From positions 270,566 through 334,565 of the forward strand of contig CAZNZL010000001.1 of assembly GCA_964577565.1 (NCBI GenBank): a stretch of 64,000 bases of DNA. The letters are read 5' to 3'. Source of the DNA: an uncultured Candidatus Saccharibacteria bacterium (lineage in GTDB: Bacteria; Patescibacteriota; Saccharimonadia; Saccharimonadales; JAGQNJ01). The stretch's first letter is position 1. The number at the start of each line of letters is the position of its first letter. Made by a program: the position numbers and the translations under genes. This document shows positions 6,756 through 54,158 of this stretch, piece by piece. The notes below the pieces were generated by a model that saw nothing but the letters and a program-made list of their open reading frames with translations, was not told the origin of the DNA and made no database searches.

Positions 6756-8522
6756 TTAGGCTTTAATCTCAAATTGGCGGAGTTTCTTTTGCGTTGTTTC
6801 GGTCTTACCGCTTTGCAGTTTTAATAATTGAGCGTAGATGCCTTTTGTGCGAGCTAATTGCCGTGGCGAGCCCATTTCATCTACTGTGCCGTTTTTTAGC
6901 GTAACAATTTGATCAACATTTTGAATCGTACTAAGCCGGTGAGCAATGATTAGGGTTGTACGGCCGTGCATGAGCCGCTCGAGCGCGTCTTGAACCATAT
7001 GCTCACTTTTACTGTCTAAACTACTGGTTGCTTCGTCTAAAATTAAGATCGGCGCATCTTTTAAGAGAGCCCGGGCAATGGCAATGCGCTGTTTTTGCCC
7101 ACCACTTAGTTTAAGGCCGCGTTCGCCAATTTCTGTATCGTAACCTTTTTCAAATTTGCTAATAAACTCGTGTGCATTCGCGGCTTTAGCGGCGTTAATA
7201 ATATCTGCTTCATTGGCGCTTGGTTGAGCATACGCAATGTTTTCTTTTATGGTGCCGCTAAATAATGCCGGCTCTTGAAAGACAACACCAATGTTGGCGC
7301 GTAAGCTTGCTTGTGTTACTCCAGCAATATCTTGTTTGTCAATCATGATGGTGCCGGCTTGCGGCTCATACAACCGCATCAGCAGATTAGTGATGGTAGT
7401 TTTGCCTTCGCCGCTCTCCCCAACGAGCGCTACCTTCGAGTCAGGTTTGATAACAAAGCTCATGTTGTTTAAGACCTTGGTGTCATCATATGCAAAGCTT
7501 ACGTTTTCAAAGCGAATTTCACCTTTACGAACGCGCAGTTTTTTAGCTTGTGGCTTGTCAGATATACTAGGCACTGTTTCCATGACCGCAAAATAATCTT
7601 TACTGTCAGAAATCGCACGTTGTGTATTGTCCACCAAAAAGCTAATGGTAAAGATAGGAATACGAATCTGCATGGCATACAGAATAAGCGTAACTGCTTG
7701 CCCGGGTGTAAATTGACCGTGATAGGCTTGGTAAAAAATAAGTGCATACACTGCCAAAAATATAACATTGAGTATAAATCGACGCTGTATATCGCGCGTA
7801 TGCCATAGTTTTGATTGGGGTCGCGTTATTCCAATCATTTTTAAAAAGTATTTATCTAAGAAGTTGAGCTCGCGCTTTTCTTGATTAAAACTTTTTACAA
7901 CCTTTATTTGCCCAATACTTTCCGTAAAACGACCACTTGCGATATCCCAGTTGTGATTATACTTGGCTTGGTAGTCCATCCATTTACCACTCGTTTTAAT
8001 CGTCATGAGTATATAAATTGGGTACAACAGAAAAAGTAGAATCGCGATCTGCCAGCTAAAGTACGCGATAATTGCCAGCGCAAAAATAGTACTAAAGACA
8101 AACTGTAAAAAGTTATTGCTCCACATTTGCATAAAGCTACCTAACTGGCCGATAGAGCGATTCAAGCGATTGATAATTTTGCCTGATAGCTCAGTGTCAA
8201 AGTATTGCTGCGGCAAACTTAAAATATGCTCGTAATAACGAACGCTCAAAATACGCTGTAGTTTGGTGGACATCAAATCGCCCCAATAGCCTGAGATATT
8301 TGAAACCATGGTAACACCAAAATCCAGCACAAAAATACCAACTGCAATCCATAACAGTGTCGATAAATTGCCGCTGCCTTCGCGAAGCAGGTCAATGGCT
8401 CGACCAGAGAGCAACGGAGTGAGCAAGCCCATAATGGCAATTAAAATACTAAATAAACTTATGCCGAGGTAGTACCGCCACAAACTAGACGTAAATCGTA
8501 AAATCTTCCAGATATGCTTCAT
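6756..8522 (-). CDS. ABC exporter, fused permease/ATPase (MsbA-like)
   Basis: Six-TM N-terminal half, Walker A GESGEGKTT, signature LSGGQKQR, Walker B ILILDEATS. Confidence 0.9.
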   Translation of the reverse strand: MKHIWKILRFTSSLWRYYLGISLFSILIAIMGLLTPLLSGRAIDLLREGSGNLSTLLWIAVGIFVLDFGVTMVSNISGYWGDLMSTKLQRILSVRYYEHILSLPQQYFDTELSGKIINRLNRSIGQLGSFMQMWSNNFLQFVFSTIFALAIIAYFSWQIAILLFLLYPIYILMTIKTSGKWMDYQAKYNHNWDIASGRFTESIGQIKVVKSFNQEKRELNFLDKYFLKMIGITRPQSKLWHTRDIQRRFILNVIFLAVYALIFYQAYHGQFTPGQAVTLILYAMQIRIPIFTISFLVDNTQRAISDSKDYFAVMETVPSISDKPQAKKLRVRKGEIRFENVSFAYDDTKVLNNMSFVIKPDSKVALVGESGEGKTTITNLLMRLYEPQAGTIMIDKQDIAGVTQASLRANIGVVFQEPALFSGTIKENIAYAQPSANEADIINAAKAANAHEFISKFEKGYDTEIGERGLKLSGGQKQRIAIARALLKDAPILILDEATSSLDSKSEHMVQDALERLMHGRTTLIIAHRLSTIQNVDQIVTLKNGTVDEMGSPRQLARTKGIYAQLLKLQSGKTETTQKKLRQFEIKA

Positions 8523-8608
8523 TTATTTTAAGTATAAACTATGCGTTTACTTATGATAGAAAAAAGTGACAAGTGTAGATATGAAAAAGGAGGGTTTATT
8601 GACGGAGT

Positions 8609-8674
8609 AAAAAATTGATGAAGGGTGCCGCAAAGCTTTGACGACTTCTCGACCTTACGGCACCCCTCTATCAA
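8609..8674 (-). terminator. putative intrinsic terminator after the mini-ORF
   Basis: Minus strand: TTGAT..GGGTGCCG-(27 nt)-CGGCACCC..ATCAA, immediately followed by TTTTTT (8609-8614). The large loop makes it atypical. Confidence 0.45.
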
Positions 8675-8800
8675 TCACCGCTTCTCGCCGGATCCCCCGC
8701 AACTGCGACAGGTCGAGCCCTTGCTTGTGGCATTCCAAAAGCTGTGCTCACGTCCGGTGCCCTTGCAGCTTTCGCATTTCTCGCGGTTTGCCAATTTCAT
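8675..8800 (-). CDS. 41-aa zinc-ribbon mini-protein with two DnaJ-type CxxCxGxG motifs (cargo of E3)
   Basis: Own translation: MKLANREKCESCKGTGREHSFWNATSKGSTCRSCGGSGEKR*. Preceded by AAGGGGGTG and followed directly by a hairpin plus U6. Below the size cutoff of the ORF track. Confidence 0.5.
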   Translation of the reverse strand: MKLANREKCESCKGTGREHSFWNATSKGSTCRSCGGSGEKR

Positions 8801-8928
8801 CACCCCCTTACCTGAGTCTCGGTCAAAATAGAATTAAGAATATGGTGCAATCTAGCAAACGCGAAGTAGTCTTCGATCTACACTTGTCAATGTGCGCATA
8901 TGGGAGCAAGCTCAACCATAGCTTCAAC

Positions 8929-8957
8929 ACTATATAATATTTTTAATTACTTTGCAA
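8929..8957 (-). promoter_or_regulatory. sigma70-like promoter of module E3
   Basis: TTGCAA, 17 nt spacer, TATAGT on the minus strand. Confidence 0.5.
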
Positions 8958-9082
8958 TACTCTGCTCTAACAACACATAAGTATTTATGTACTCTATAGA
9001 GAAGAGACAGATGTATGATTATGAAGCGGAAAGAAAGGAGGAGCAAAAAGCTCAAACTCTAACTAACTCTCGACGCATGTCT

Positions 9083-9328
9083 CTAATAGGCCTTCGGAGG
9101 TCCCGCCGATATGCAGCAATGAGCGCAGCACGGCACATGGCGGGACCCCCGGGCGCGGAGCTGGTTTCTGGGTTTGCCAAACCAACTCGGCGAAGGGTGA
9201 CTTCCGAATCCCCGGGGAGAGGGAGGGGGGACCGGAAGTCGCCCGAAATGGCACAACATATGCATATTCGCCTTGCAGCGATTACACACGTTGTGCACGT
9301 AACTGAGAGTAACCCAACGATTTAGCAA
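9083..9328 (-). CDS. doubtful 81-aa Cys-rich ORF inside the E4 cargo (TTG start)
   Basis: Contains CNRCKA, encoded by the same GCTGCAAGG 9-mer as CESCKG in the E3 mini-protein, and a later CAHC. The rest is Pro/Ser/Arg-rich low complexity with no ATG start, so it may be a decayed or non-coding reading frame. Confidence 0.2.
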   Translation of the reverse strand: MLNRWVTLSYVHNVCNRCKANMHMLCHFGRLPVPPPSPRGFGSHPSPSWFGKPRNQLRARGSRHVPCCAHCCISAGPPKAY

Positions 9329-9669
9329 CCATTCCCCAGCTGGTAGCTTGGATTGCTAGGTCACCCTCAGATCTCGTAAGCTCGTCGGAACGTTGGCATT
9401 TCACCAAGTTCAACGCACACCCCCTGGAGCACGTCCAACTATCGCTAGAAGACGATCGAACTTACGTGAAGAGTTTTCATGTGTTTTACCACAAACGCAT
9501 CCTGAGTATGTCTACCAAGAACACTTAACTCTCCAAGCCTATGTCATTAGACAATGACGTTAATTTACTTGTAGCAAATAAACTAGCATCATTGCCTAAC
9601 GAAAACTTGTTTCATACATCTGTCAAAGATCAACTCAGGAATCGTTGCCGACTCAACCGAGTAATAAAT

Positions 9670-9698
9670 AATATACACTTTTAACAAAATAAAGTCAA
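9670..9698 (-). promoter_or_regulatory. sigma70-like promoter of module E4
   Basis: TTGACT, 17 nt spacer, TATATT on the minus strand. Confidence 0.5.
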
Positions 9699-9700
9699 TG

Positions 9701-12253
9701 CTAAATTCTGACTGCGCCGAGATGATCTTTAGCGGCAGCGGCAATTTGATCAAGTAGTTTATTAACTTCTTCAGTTACCAGTGTGCGCTGCGGGTGCGTC
9801 AAGCTAAGGCGCAACGATATGTGTTTGGTGTTGGTGGCTGTATTTTTTTGGTATATATCTAGCGGTGTTACTGTAGTGTTATAACCATGCGCTTTTTGGG
9901 CATCAGATAAAACTGCATCAACCACGGTGCGTAGGCTTGCATAATTGGTATCAACTTTTACTTTAAAACTAATGTCTTGTTGCGTATGCGGAAAGCGCGC
10001 CAGCTGCCGGTACATGTTTTTAGAGCCATAGGCTTCAAGCATTTGTATATCTAACTCAAAACCGGCGGTAAACTCAGGTAGTTTCAAATTCTTTTTAATA
10101 GTTGATTTAATTTCCCCCACTATACCAAGCAGCTTGCCATGCTCTGTTTTAATATAAGCAGTTCTGCCCCGCTCAAATGGCATTAACACCTGTTTGCCGG
10201 TATCAAGTTTTGGATCGTGACTAGTAGACGGCTCAAACACCAAATTATTAAAACCTAAACGCCCCATAAACGCCTCTATATATGCCCGCGCCTGGTAATA
10301 TGGGCTACCGCTATATGCTTTTGCTGCTTTGTTATCGGCCGCAAACACCAAGGCAAGGCGCTCTTCTTCTATGGGCAGGCCGTCTTCATGCGTATTGCTT
10401 TTATCGTGTGTCTTGTTAATTTCATATAGCGCAAACTCGCTGTGCCCAGCTTTTATATTAGGGTGAACTTTTTCGAGTAAACTTGGTAGCAAACTCAACC
10501 GATAATATTGAAGATCAGGGCTCAGCGCATTACTAAGCTGGTAGGCTAACGTTTTGTCTTGCCCAACCGCTTCAAGCAAGCGCTCATGCACAAAACTATA
10601 GGTTAAAACCTCGTTTGCACCGGCTGCGCTTAAAATTTGCCTAATTTTTTGCTTTATTTGCAGCAACCGGTTAGCTGTAGCGGGCTTAATGTTGCGACTT
10701 GGCAGCTCAACCGGCAAATTATCGTAGCCGTGCAACCGGCCGACTTCTTCAACCACGTCTTCGGCAATTTGAATATCAGTCCGCCAAAACGGTGATAAAA
10801 CCGTCAGCGCATTCTTTTTGCCCACATCAACACCAAATTCGACATTAGTAAGCAGCTTTTTAATGTGCGCCTCGGTTACGTTACTGCCCAGGCGCTCGTT
10901 AATAAACGCCGGCGTAATATCAACCTCTCGGTCATTCCAGCTGTCGTCCGCCACGTTAATGTCGTCACAATCAACAAAATCATGAACCTCACCTGCAACA
11001 TGACCACGTGCCAGTTTTTGCACCCAGGCAATCGCATACGCTAATACGCGCTTGTTTTGCAATGGGCTTTGGCCTTTATTAAAACGGGTTACGGCATCGG
11101 TAAATAAGCCATGTGCCATACTGGTGCGCCGAATAGAGTACATATCAAACGTCGCACATTCTAAAACGATGTTTTTAGTATTAAAATCAACCTCGGTCTC
11201 ACGGCCACCCATAACACCACCCACACCAATCAATTTTTTGGCGCTGGCTATCATAATTGCATCATGGTGCGGAGCTATTTCTTTGTCGTTTAGTAGGGTA
11301 AGTTTTTCATTTTTTTTGGGCTTTCTAACGACGATTGTGGCATGCGTAGCATTATCAAGCGAGACAAGTTTGTCGTAATCATAGGCATGCATCGGTTGCG
11401 CGGTCAGTGTCATGACAAAATTAGTAATATCAACAATGTTATTAATTGGCTTAATGCCAACTCGTGATAAAAAGCTTTGAATCATCACCGGCGACTTACT
11501 AACAGTCACACCACTCATTGGCACAGCCATAAAACGTGGCACCAGGTCTGCTAACTCGTTTTTTACCTCTAGTAAGAGCTTTTTGTCAGCGGTGATTTTA
11601 AAAGCATCGAGTGACTCTAAATACCATTCGGGCGATTTAAATTTGTGGTTTTGAATTCCGGCTATCTCGCGAGCAACACCTAATTGACCAAAACAATCAG
11701 GGCGATGGGTAAACATCTTGTTTTCAATATCAATAATGTAATCGTCTAGTTTGTAAACATCCTTAAACAACTCGCCTGGGTCAGCTGGCTTGTCTAATAT
11801 TAAAATGCCCTCGTGGTCATCATTAATGGCCAGCTCTTTGCCGCTTGCCAGCATGCCATTGCTGGTTACGCCGCGTAACTCTCGCGCTTCAAGCGTAAAC
11901 TGTTCGATATCAAACGTACTTGGCACAACCGCGCCAGGCGGGATCCACGCCACAGTAATGCCTTTGCGCACATTTGGCGCGCCGCAAACAACCTGCACAT
12001 AGCCGTTTTCATCACGCGCTACGTTTTTTACTTTCTTGCCATCATCAATTTTGCAAACACTCAGTTTGTCGGCATTAGGGTGTTTCTCGCAACTCACCAC
12101 CTTGGCAACCACAATTCCTTCGTAACGTTCGCCAAGATTTACAACTTCTTCAACCTCGCCAAGCTGGGCGCCAATTTTAGCCACCAACTCATCAACGCTT
12201 AGCTTAACGTCAGTAAATTCTTTAATCCAATTCAAACTAATCTTCATTTTCAA
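9701..12253 (-). CDS. pheT: phenylalanine--tRNA ligase beta subunit
   Basis: 850 aa with the N-terminal tRNA-binding domain, B3/4, B5 and C-terminal anticodon-binding-like domains. Typical MKISLNWIKEF start. Confidence 0.95.
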   Translation of the reverse strand: MKMKISLNWIKEFTDVKLSVDELVAKIGAQLGEVEEVVNLGERYEGIVVAKVVSCEKHPNADKLSVCKIDDGKKVKNVARDENGYVQVVCGAPNVRKGITVAWIPPGAVVPSTFDIEQFTLEARELRGVTSNGMLASGKELAINDDHEGILILDKPADPGELFKDVYKLDDYIIDIENKMFTHRPDCFGQLGVAREIAGIQNHKFKSPEWYLESLDAFKITADKKLLLEVKNELADLVPRFMAVPMSGVTVSKSPVMIQSFLSRVGIKPINNIVDITNFVMTLTAQPMHAYDYDKLVSLDNATHATIVVRKPKKNEKLTLLNDKEIAPHHDAIMIASAKKLIGVGGVMGGRETEVDFNTKNIVLECATFDMYSIRRTSMAHGLFTDAVTRFNKGQSPLQNKRVLAYAIAWVQKLARGHVAGEVHDFVDCDDINVADDSWNDREVDITPAFINERLGSNVTEAHIKKLLTNVEFGVDVGKKNALTVLSPFWRTDIQIAEDVVEEVGRLHGYDNLPVELPSRNIKPATANRLLQIKQKIRQILSAAGANEVLTYSFVHERLLEAVGQDKTLAYQLSNALSPDLQYYRLSLLPSLLEKVHPNIKAGHSEFALYEINKTHDKSNTHEDGLPIEEERLALVFAADNKAAKAYSGSPYYQARAYIEAFMGRLGFNNLVFEPSTSHDPKLDTGKQVLMPFERGRTAYIKTEHGKLLGIVGEIKSTIKKNLKLPEFTAGFELDIQMLEAYGSKNMYRQLARFPHTQQDISFKVKVDTNYASLRTVVDAVLSDAQKAHGYNTTVTPLDIYQKNTATNTKHISLRLSLTHPQRTLVTEEVNKLLDQIAAAAKDHLGAVRI

Positions 12254-53846: not shown

Positions 53847-54158
53847 CGTGCGTGCCCTCGTCAGATTAAGTTGGTGACCATACCTATAATTTGACAATCA
53901 AGTAGTCAAATTATGCCATGGCCACATTCTTTGCTTCCTTTTCCTAGCCCATCTTACGATAAGCTGGGAGCCCTAAGAAACGGGTGGGCACAAACCAAAA
54001 CAAAATATAAAAGAAGGTGGCATATGCCAGCTTCTTTTATATTTCGTGCGTGCCCACCCGGCGGCGGGTGGTTTTTGGTAAAGTGTTTGTTTCACGCGCC
54101 GCGTTATATCGACGCACGAATCACTTATGTTTATAATACTTATGTTTTATTAAGTCAA

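Follow-up and report, generated by a model that had tools for sequence, protein, structure and literature searches.

In the ribosomal RNA (rRNA) operons (rrn) of Escherichia coli, the leader carries boxB, boxA and boxC in that order, with boxC inside the helix formed by leader and trailer, and boxA-bound NusB/NusE are thought to keep the leader tethered to the polymerase while the trailer has yet to emerge (PMC10250234). For boxA, the E. coli consensus is GYTCTTTAANA (PMC5725501). boxA is also found upstream of CRISPR (clustered regularly interspaced short palindromic repeats) arrays, which give long untranslated transcripts, and there it counters Rho (PMC7665894). We analyzed a 64,000-nucleotide (nt) stretch of DNA from an uncultured Candidatus Saccharibacteria bacterium (contig CAZNZL010000001.1, positions 270,566 to 334,565; hereafter the window) and describe here E4, a minus-strand element directly past pheT that is built along similar lines. 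Saccharibacteria and other bacteria of the candidate phyla radiation (CPR) have tiny, densely coding genomes, and a non-coding gene of 650 nt is therefore unexpected. According to a 2022 preprint on TM7x, no small RNA of TM7x had been validated by then.

E4 is a real, strand-assigned, non-coding and extremely structured RNA gene inside a conserved, covarying framework. It lies outside the catalogued RNA families and has an rRNA-leader-like architecture without an enclosed rRNA. We give a probability of roughly 55% to the reading that it is an independent minus-strand non-coding RNA gene of ∼650 nt with the leader–trailer arrangement of an rRNA operon. An earlier interpretation, made from the sequence alone (the original prediction), had described E4 as a framework with a cargo that is either a large structured RNA or a decayed gene. 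The parts of E4 are as follows, in the 5′ to 3′ direction of the RNA.

9670..9698, minus strand: promoter with −35 box TTGACT (9698-9693), 17-nt spacer and −10 box TATATT (9675-9670)
9633..9662, minus strand: leader hairpin at a boxB-like position, present in the minimum-free-energy and centroid folds
9620..9631, minus strand: boxA-like motif GAUCUUUGACAG, family consensus GYACUUUGACAG (alignment A4)
9612..9624, minus strand: 5′ arm (leader strand) of closing helix P1, GACAGAUGUAUGA, a perfect 13-bp complement of 9018-9006
9544..9602, minus strand: H1, a 27-bp A+U-rich hairpin directly after P1, with five G-U pairs (fold)
9086..9542, minus strand: helix P2 (8 bp, 9542-9535 with 9093-9086) and the variable G+C-rich core that it encloses
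9534-9468, minus strand: three-way junction of the core (fold)
9466-9375, minus strand: branched domain of the core (fold)
9370-9303, 9298-9250, 9244-9195, 9192-9154 and 9151-9095, minus strand: five long G+C-rich hairpins of the core (fold)
9019..9081, minus strand: 3′ domain, common to E4-like RNAs, with conserved blocks in alignment A3
9081-9069, minus strand: small hairpin and GUCGAG, in the 3′ domain
9056-9041, minus strand: hairpin GUUUGAGC-UUUUU-GCUC, in the 3′ domain
9040-9019, minus strand: C/U-rich, G-poor tail CUCCUUUCUUUCCGCUUCAUAA (beginning CUCCUUUCUUUCC), in the 3′ domain
9006..9018, minus strand: P1 3′ arm (trailer strand) UCAUACAUCUGUC, pairing with 9624-9612
8961..9005, minus strand: 17-bp trailer hairpin (fold), starting with the family trailer motif UCUUCUCUAUAG

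The original prediction had placed the sequence TTGACT-N17-TATATT 2 nt past the pheT stop codon; it is present there, and our promoter scan independently picks it with 10 of 12 matches. The predicted transcription start, near 9663, coincides with the foot of the leader hairpin. In other modules of the same family, a GTATAnT −10-like box is found at equal distance from the hairpin (alignment A1), and because of this fixed upstream distance we place the hairpin at the 5′ end of the transcript. The leader, likewise correctly predicted, is composed of a lower stem (ACUCGG/CUGAGU), a UU bulge, an upper stem (GAGUCG/CGAUUC) and a GCAA tetraloop. With R1, a 49-position covariance model of the leader hairpin and the motif that follows it, E4 scores 52.5 bits (E 4e-12). 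The E4 version of the motif reads GAUCUUUG-ACAG, and its last 5 nt double as the conserved base of P1. In alignment A4, the motif has invariant positions U, U, A and A and nearly invariant positions G, C, C and G. The P1 pairing is perfect, as had been claimed, and it is unique within the window; its ensemble pair probability is 0.89–1.0 in the partition function.

At the 3′ end, a terminator scan found no canonical terminator between E4 and the next module, E3. The trailer hairpin is not followed by a U-tract, and read-through into E3 is thus possible. The trailer motif CnUYUYCCARAG is conserved in the first 12–15 nt after the 3′ arm in 23 modules (9005-8990 in the window) and resembles the 3′ half of the leader hairpin. 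We considered pairing of the trailer motif with the 5′ half of the leader as an alternative structure and rejected it as not significant (p = 0.08).

The 701-nt minus-strand RNA folds with −296 kcal/mol, as compared with −208 ± 6.6 kcal/mol for dinucleotide shuffles (z = −13.3), whereas the plus strand of the same region reaches only −217 kcal/mol (z = −5.9). For the bracketed module, the minus strand gives −279 kcal/mol with 226 pairs, 33 of them G-U (z = −14.1), and its complement −209 kcal/mol with 197 pairs and 10 G-U, a gap of 70 kcal/mol. In the fold, 73% of the E4 bases are paired. Since the fold energy is lower and G-U pairs are more numerous (33 versus 10), E4 is assigned to the minus strand, as is pheT, and the view that its strand could not be assigned does not hold. 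The same asymmetry extends to the family: in 22 of 23 modules, the leader-bearing strand has the better fold of the two. Asymmetries of individual stems do disagree with each other, as had been observed, with GGGCGAC.../...GUCACCC as an exception that favours the other strand. All five local stems that had been called perfect exist, but two are not strictly so; the GGGTGACTTCCG/CGGAAGTCGCCC stem contains one non-Watson–Crick position and the GAACGTTGG/CCAAGTTC stem one bulge.

The three closest module-holding genomes (L001, L002 and L003) allow the fold to be compared, and L001 and L002 carry an E4-like RNA at the equivalent site. E4 shares with all three its leader, P1, H1, the last G+C hairpin and the 3′ domain, with compensatory changes. 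H1 is common to all of them with such changes, and most non-coding modules of the wider family have a single hairpin of 50–97 nt at this position. The 3′ domain is also conserved in an nhmmer match to L002. The scaffold of this E4 subfamily thus consists of P1, H1, the 3′ G+C hairpin, GUCGAG, the UUGAG hairpin and the C/U-rich tail. No alignment with L001–L003 is possible for the inner core of E4. The inner hairpins of the subfamily turn over quickly while the scaffold stays.

In 16 non-coding modules, the last 35 nt before the 3′ arm are mostly unpaired and contain on average 39% C and 10% G, as compared with 27% C and 27% G elsewhere. The E4 tail contains CCUCCUUUC, which is similar to the 3′ end of 16S rRNA. 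This C-rich tail could be a Rho loading site, an element resembling an anti-Shine–Dalgarno (anti-SD) sequence, or a partner of G-rich loops. E4 has a G-rich hairpin loop, GCUGGGGAA (9340-9332, minus strand), and a 13-nt C-rich loop, CCUCCCUCUCCCC (9226-9214, minus strand); the two could form a loop–loop contact. L001 and L002 both conserve a UGGGGAUGG motif similar to the G-rich loop, and in these two genomes RNAalifold predicts pairing of that motif with the C/U-rich tail.

The open reading frames (ORFs) of the E4 region are rich in Pro, Arg and Ser, in agreement with the original prediction, and none has a Pfam domain. A protein search with the 112-aa plus-strand ORF returned no homologue. 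With the 81-aa minus-strand ORF as query, HMMER searched 1.84 billion proteins exhaustively and gave three weak, multi-stretch matches to long proteins, which we read as low complexity. The CxxCK patch that this frame has in common with the E3 mini-protein finds no support beyond the patch itself. The RNAs of L001 and L002 can be aligned throughout. Their substitutions are distributed over the three positions (modulo 3) as 67/51/63 (p = 0.32), without codon periodicity; 11 of their 15 indels are not multiples of 3, and stop codons occur in all frames. Conservation of a codon-periodic frame is therefore not seen in these homologs. Among 117 predicted pairs, 19 are changed on both sides, about 21 show a single compatible change and one is broken; of the 40 pairs with any change, 39 remain paired.

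These data bear on the second half of the original alternative, in which E4 would be a decayed coding module of the E3 or E1 type and its core a drifting pseudogene. Sister modules of identical framework do carry ORFs, the core is unalignable between genomes, and in E4 an SD-like AGGGGGUG with UUG, together with a UGGGGAUGG-type motif, recalls the ribosome-binding site of E3; the C/U-rich tail might be the remnant of an anti-SD partner. On the other hand, neither long ORF has a homologue, the helices are kept between L001 and L002 with no codon signal, and a z-score of −14 with 73% of the bases paired is far beyond the coding modules (z = −4.4 to −6.5). The presence of 33 G-U pairs on one strand alone points to selection on RNA pairing, and about 14 other modules are likewise ORF-free and hyper-structured. 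We consider decay very unlikely; the structured-RNA half of the alternative is the one that stands.

The structured RNA does not belong to a known family. At the gathering threshold, Rfam 15 finds only four transfer RNAs (tRNAs) in the whole window; at E ≤ 10, the interval 8400-9900 gives spurious microRNA and snoRNA (small nucleolar RNA) matches only. L001–L003 have no match at E ≤ 1, and 15 related loci yield only tRNAs and tRNA-like elements. The families not matched by E4 include OLE, GOLLD, ROOL, HEARO, raiA, RNase P, tmRNA, 6S and riboswitches. ARAGORN detects neither a tmRNA nor a tRNA in E4, and the hammerhead core CUGANGA...GAAA does not occur in it. Small-subunit, large-subunit and 5S rRNA have no match in the window or the related loci, and the bracket does not enclose rRNA. 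PMC13011429 suggested the possibility of a tRNA gene interrupted by a group I intron; we considered it as well and rejected it, as no intron model (including group I/II) matches. The Rfam result leaves the interpretation as a structured orphan RNA intact.

To place E4 among its relatives, we used a search set composed of the window and 160 related Saccharibacteria pheT loci (L001–L160). The shared outer design was noticed because the gaps behind pheT were folded. R1 has 22 matches at E < 0.01 in this set, and the framework is found in 22–24 places. Four of the R1 matches lie in the window (E4, E3 and a tandem pair at about 23000-21185). The framework consists of a module's own promoter, a 5′ UU-bulge hairpin, GYACUUUGACAG, a closing helix of 11–16 bp and a trailer hairpin. 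In 23 of 24 candidates, the closing helix has 11–16 bp in exact register with GACAG, its complement follows 320–930 nt downstream, and behind each helix stands a similar trailer, always in equal register. For a perfect 11-mer complement within 3 kb, the chance probability is below 1e-3 per module.

Both helices of the framework covary. In P1, 91.6% of the alignment cells pair, as compared with 67% after shuffling and 25–47% in slid controls, and double changes occur in 12 of 14 pairs; the base GACAG/CUGUC is conserved, and the remainder varies yet stays complementary. In the leader hairpin (22 sequences), 88.6% of the cells are paired versus 70% after shuffling, with double changes in 9 of 11 pairs and one conserved G-U. 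The idea of a framework plus cargo, originally derived from the window, thus recurs in 22–24 modules among relatives.

R1 misses several long gaps behind pheT that are ORF-free and fold strongly (L011:6503-7189 and L066:6536-7090, also L012–L014, L065 and L074). Those of L011 and L066 have P1-like brackets (AAGGUGUAGGU/ACCUACACCUU and GACAGAUGAAGCUU/AAGCUUCAUCUGUU), the usual trailer and variant leaders. Because of such gaps, the family is larger than counted. It is apparently specific to Saccharibacteria and undescribed; searches of the literature on Saccharibacteria and CPR bacteria gave no earlier account of RNAs of this kind. In 2.9 million viral contigs, the framework pattern has four chance matches without a closing stem (R1 ≤13 bits), and phage records show no DNA similarity to the modules.

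On the minus strand, the window has the order pheT, E4 (9698..about 8960), E3 and an ABC transporter gene. The coordinates of the two flanking genes are given below.

12253..9701, minus strand: pheT, with five Pfam PheT domains
8522..6756, minus strand: ABC transporter gene

The pheT protein has matches exclusively in Saccharibacteria/Patescibacteria assemblies, with at most 72% identity. A search of metagenome contigs via pheT for nearer relatives gave nothing above 60% identity. In exact look-ups, pheT (two starts) has no record, and the ABC transporter gene and the E2 protein lead only to contigs of 2–3 kb. About 20 of the first 80 related genomes have a 550–1000-nt, ORF-free and strongly folding gap directly 3′ of pheT; in the remaining ones, pheT abuts or overlaps the next gene, in many by 0–7 nt. 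Across L001–L160, the junction behind pheT is a variable hot spot with overlap or abutment, modules, or unrelated genes such as those for collagen-like repeat proteins (L003:6621-8810). Elsewhere in the window, positions 54000-54047 form a 48-nt near-perfect palindrome of two abutting 24-nt arms that are 92% complementary.

Module presence is scattered over the pheT tree, and the positions are always gene junctions. This distribution raises the question of a DNA-level element, either a non-autonomous mobile element with terminal inverted repeats or a segment flipped by a recombinase. Perfect inverted repeats, nearly free of G-U, around ∼600 bp would agree with it, and so would the overlapping or abutting pheT of module-less genomes and a cargo that is G+C-rich relative to the genome. 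The patchiness could equally stem from homologous recombination between the conserved flanking genes. The four modules of the window, however, have four different repeats beyond GACAG, with no other copies; a target-site duplication is missing, and flank similarity is the same within and between modules (p = 0.63). Leader and trailer are asymmetric and conserved, and they delimit a transcription unit. Relative to the promoter, all 7 coding cargos point the same way, as do 22 of the 23 fold asymmetries, which argues against inversion. The four viral-contig matches are due to chance and phage records have none, and no transposase, invertase or recombinase was seen beside the modules among the minority of neighbouring ORFs that were scanned for domains. 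An element acting as DNA is therefore improbable.

The framework encloses four classes of cargo: hyper-structured RNAs, Cys-rich mini-ORFs, orphan proteins followed by a hammerhead ribozyme, and tRNA-like elements. Members of the first class are ORF-free with z = −7 to −16 (E4, L001, L002, L003, L063, L017, L033, L018, L069, L056, L073, L114, L122 and L019), and E1 and E2 have z = −4.6 to −5.7. The sister modules and the tRNA-like elements are as follows.

8567..8957, minus strand: E3, with promoter 8957-8929, leader hairpin, GCACAUUGACAAG and P1 8889-8876 with 8580-8567
8803/8800..8675, minus strand: E3 cargo, a 41/42-aa CxxCxGxG mini-ORF with a weak DnaJ_CXXCXGXG match (E 6e-4)
22096..23003, minus strand: E1, with promoter, leader and P1 22922-22909 with 22165-22152
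22769..22287, minus strand: E1 cargo, a 160-aa G+C-rich orphan ORF
22149-22096, minus strand: E1 type III hammerhead (Hammerhead_3, 28.9 bits, E 0.0015), core CUGAUGA...GAAA visible
21185..22075, minus strand: E2, with a variant leader containing an extra hairpin, GUACUUUAACAG and P1 21976-21964 with 21252-21240
21881..21342, minus strand: E2 cargo, a 179-aa G+C-rich orphan ORF
21237-21185, minus strand: E2 type III hammerhead (23.5 bits)
L143:4346-4750, L044:6668-7504, L045:6556-7339 and L050:6609-7179: mini-protein modules of related genomes
L019:6691-6785, L038:3262-3336, L056:6739-6811 and L069:8475-8555: tRNA-like elements inside the bracket, directly after the first long hairpin

The mini-proteins of E3, L143, L044, L045 and L050 have 41–65 aa and repeated CxxC(xGxG) motifs. 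Their ribosome-binding sites are strong in L044, L045 and L050 (UAAGGAGGUGAUU) and weaker and purine-rich in E3 and L143. The E3 mini-protein has no called-gene record in the look-up collection, and a word-based search gave no homologue. A protein search with E2 found nothing beyond itself, and the E1–E3 proteins have no informative match in Pfam, PHROGs or PADLOC. The hammerheads of E1 and E2 stand directly 3′ of the bracket, where other modules have the trailer hairpin; both score below the Rfam gathering threshold and are therefore missed by standard annotation. The 5′ untranslated region of the E1 ORF (22848-22777, minus strand) has a weak match to RAGATH-10 (25.7 bits, E 0.046), which is below threshold and partly due to the ribosome-binding site. 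The RAGATH-10 motif class was originally defined by its association with hammerhead and twister ribozymes.

Three of the tRNA-like elements score 49–65 bits with the Rfam tRNA model. Their oddities include one 8-nt anticodon loop, one anticodon AUC and two lengths of 95 and 81 nt. E4 has its three-way junction (9534-9468) at the position where other modules have these elements, and this junction is not tRNA-like by Rfam.

With E3 and the transporter gene downstream, E4 might be seen as a very large cis-acting leader, with the E3 mini-ORF or the ABC transporter gene under its control. The E4–E3 interval without a canonical terminator would fit, as would the many modules just upstream of an ABC transporter gene and the three relatives (L044, L045 and L050) in which a structured region and a mini-ORF lie within one bracket. 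Promoter, leader and closed bracket, however, are separate for E4 and E3, and no riboswitch or leader family matches. The downstream genes are unrelated between modules, or the module lies after the next gene, and because these genes differ we regard a cis-regulatory leader as the least likely of the explanations discussed here.

We therefore return to the reading of E4 as an independent gene with an rRNA-operon-like leader and trailer, for which we propose the following course of events. Transcription would start from the sigma-70-type promoter directly past the pheT stop codon and would produce, in this order, the bulged 5′ hairpin, the single-stranded motif, the 5′ arm of P1, the core, the 3′ arm of P1 and the trailer hairpin. 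P1 could close only after the ∼590-nt, densely paired, G+C-rich core has been made. By analogy, hairpin, motif and P1 arm would correspond to boxB, boxA and boxC in their order. As the RNA is being made, NusB/NusE may bind to its boxA-like motif and hold the 5′ arm where the RNA leaves the polymerase, and Nus loading would shield the untranslated transcript from Rho. Once the 3′ arm emerges, P1 would snap shut co-transcriptionally, and 5′ hairpin, P1 and trailer hairpin together would make the RNA compact and protect its ends; RNase III may trim this RNA. A Nus-loading sequence is proposed because of the order of the elements, the likeness of the motif and the precedent of the CRISPR boxA. GYACUUUGACAG agrees with GYTCTTTAANA at ∼9 of 11 positions, the consensus being gamma-proteobacterial, and the name boxA for the E4 motif is putative and given by analogy. 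Nus binding, Rho protection and processing are likewise what we would expect from the rRNA leader. The core, in our preferred view, would be a rapidly diversifying scaffold RNA that binds protein or self-assembles.

In the search for a Saccharibacteria rRNA leader for comparison, the related loci were found to hold no rRNA, and a TM7 16S signature gave two false matches in viral contigs.

Several observations weigh against this reading. Two positions of the motif deviate from the E. coli boxA core, and its end is shared with the base of P1. Translated cargos (E1–E3), for which Rho protection is less obviously needed, are enclosed by the framework as well, and the C-rich, G-poor tail resembles a Rho loading site, which is awkward for antitermination. 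For a classical RNase III site, a longer helix than 11–16 bp would be expected. P1 is almost purely Watson–Crick, with few G-U cells, so that a constraint at the level of DNA would fit too. Closing stems helped to delimit the modules, and the P1 statistics are therefore not fully independent. Finally, since the E4 core has no alignable homologue, its hairpins rest on thermodynamics and G-U asymmetry and not on covariation.

For the mechanism, the main rival is a generic cassette for RNA stabilization or processing that operates without Nus factors. In such a cassette, the 5′ hairpin would block entry of a 5′ exonuclease or pyrophosphohydrolase, the 3′ end would be shielded by P1 and the trailer hairpin, or these two would serve as a site for a nuclease or other protein, and GYACUUUGACAG and CnUYUYCCARAG would bind another, lineage-specific protein. 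The position of the hairpin at the predicted transcript start suits this explanation, as does a second conserved motif after P1 and a single framework that serves messenger RNAs (mRNAs) and non-coding RNAs alike. The hammerheads that replace the trailer hairpin in E1 and E2 indicate that the framework ends in defined 3′-end formation, and the boxA assignment itself rests on analogy. Against this stands the order of hairpin, U-rich motif and helix arm, which closely matches rrn leaders. Moreover, the motif is single-stranded and conserved in sequence rather than structure, and a generic stabilizer would not need it. We judge a cassette without Nus factors possible, though rather unlikely.

Beyond E4, and more tentatively than the reading of E4 itself, we suggest that Saccharibacteria carry a lineage-specific, general-purpose leader–trailer cassette with exchangeable cargos and that E4-type RNAs are a new class of large RNA with arms-race hairpins. 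The cassette may comprise promoter, bulged 5′ hairpin, boxA-like motif, closing helix and terminator or hammerhead. Its cargos (ornate RNAs, Cys-rich mini-proteins, orphan proteins and tRNA mimics) may be swapped at hot spots such as the 3′ junction of pheT, and the fast-evolving hairpins may interact with phages or the host bacterium. Should the boxA reading be true, Nus-assisted leader–trailer folding would be a reusable platform beyond rRNA. If the cores are functional, they would add a new, experimentally tractable class to the few large bacterial RNAs of unknown function; E4-type RNAs have very stable folds and defined ends. The family signature also provides annotators with a simple aid for mini-proteins and RNAs that gene callers miss.

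With the large ornate RNAs (OLE, GOLLD, ROOL and raiA), E4 shares a size of ∼600 nt, its nature as an intergenic stand-alone gene and helices that radiate from multiloops. A further likeness is that some family members contain a tRNA-like element or lie next to one (PMC12286853). Unlike them, E4 has no covariance-model match even at E = 1–10. Their cores are conserved, whereas the E4 type has a hypervariable core and conserves only its outer scaffold, and the z-scores of −9 to −16 reflect long, near-perfect hairpins rather than intricate conserved junctions.

Retrozymes, viroid-like RNAs and the engineered Tornado system also join the ends of a cargo by a helix, and as in ribozyme-flanked RNAs, the hammerhead of E1 and E2 is predicted to cut right after the 3′ arm. 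E4, in contrast, has no ribozyme, and the modules are chromosomal genes with promoters. Because no module has a 5′ ribozyme, circularization is not expected.

In Y RNA (YrlA), the ends likewise pair in a closing stem, and L019, L038, L056 and L069 carry a tRNA-like element as well. The modules, however, are five to eight times larger and have no Y RNA match, the three-way junction of E4 is not tRNA-like, and no Ro/Rsr gene was seen among the scanned neighbours.

The boxA elements of CRISPR arrays and other non-rRNA transcripts (PMC7665894, PMC5725501) are a precedent for the E4 motif in that they precede long untranslated transcripts and extend the use of Nus factors beyond rRNA. They differ from it in having no leader–trailer helix and in not requiring a 5′ hairpin, and the cargo of the modules is a folded RNA or a small gene instead of a repeat array.

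The rrn leader is distinguished from the E4 family by its helix of 25–40 bp (11–16 bp in the family) and by a boxA ∼18 nt upstream of the helix, whereas the family motif abuts or overlaps it; the RNA enclosed in E4 is not rRNA, and some cargos of the family are mRNAs. Common to both are a hairpin, a short U-rich single-stranded motif and the 5′ strand of a long-range helix, in this succession (E4; alignments A2 and A4), with a motif, GYACUUUGACAG, that resembles boxA GYUCUUUAANA. In both, a covarying helix with a conserved base closes after hundreds of nucleotides of structured, untranslated RNA.

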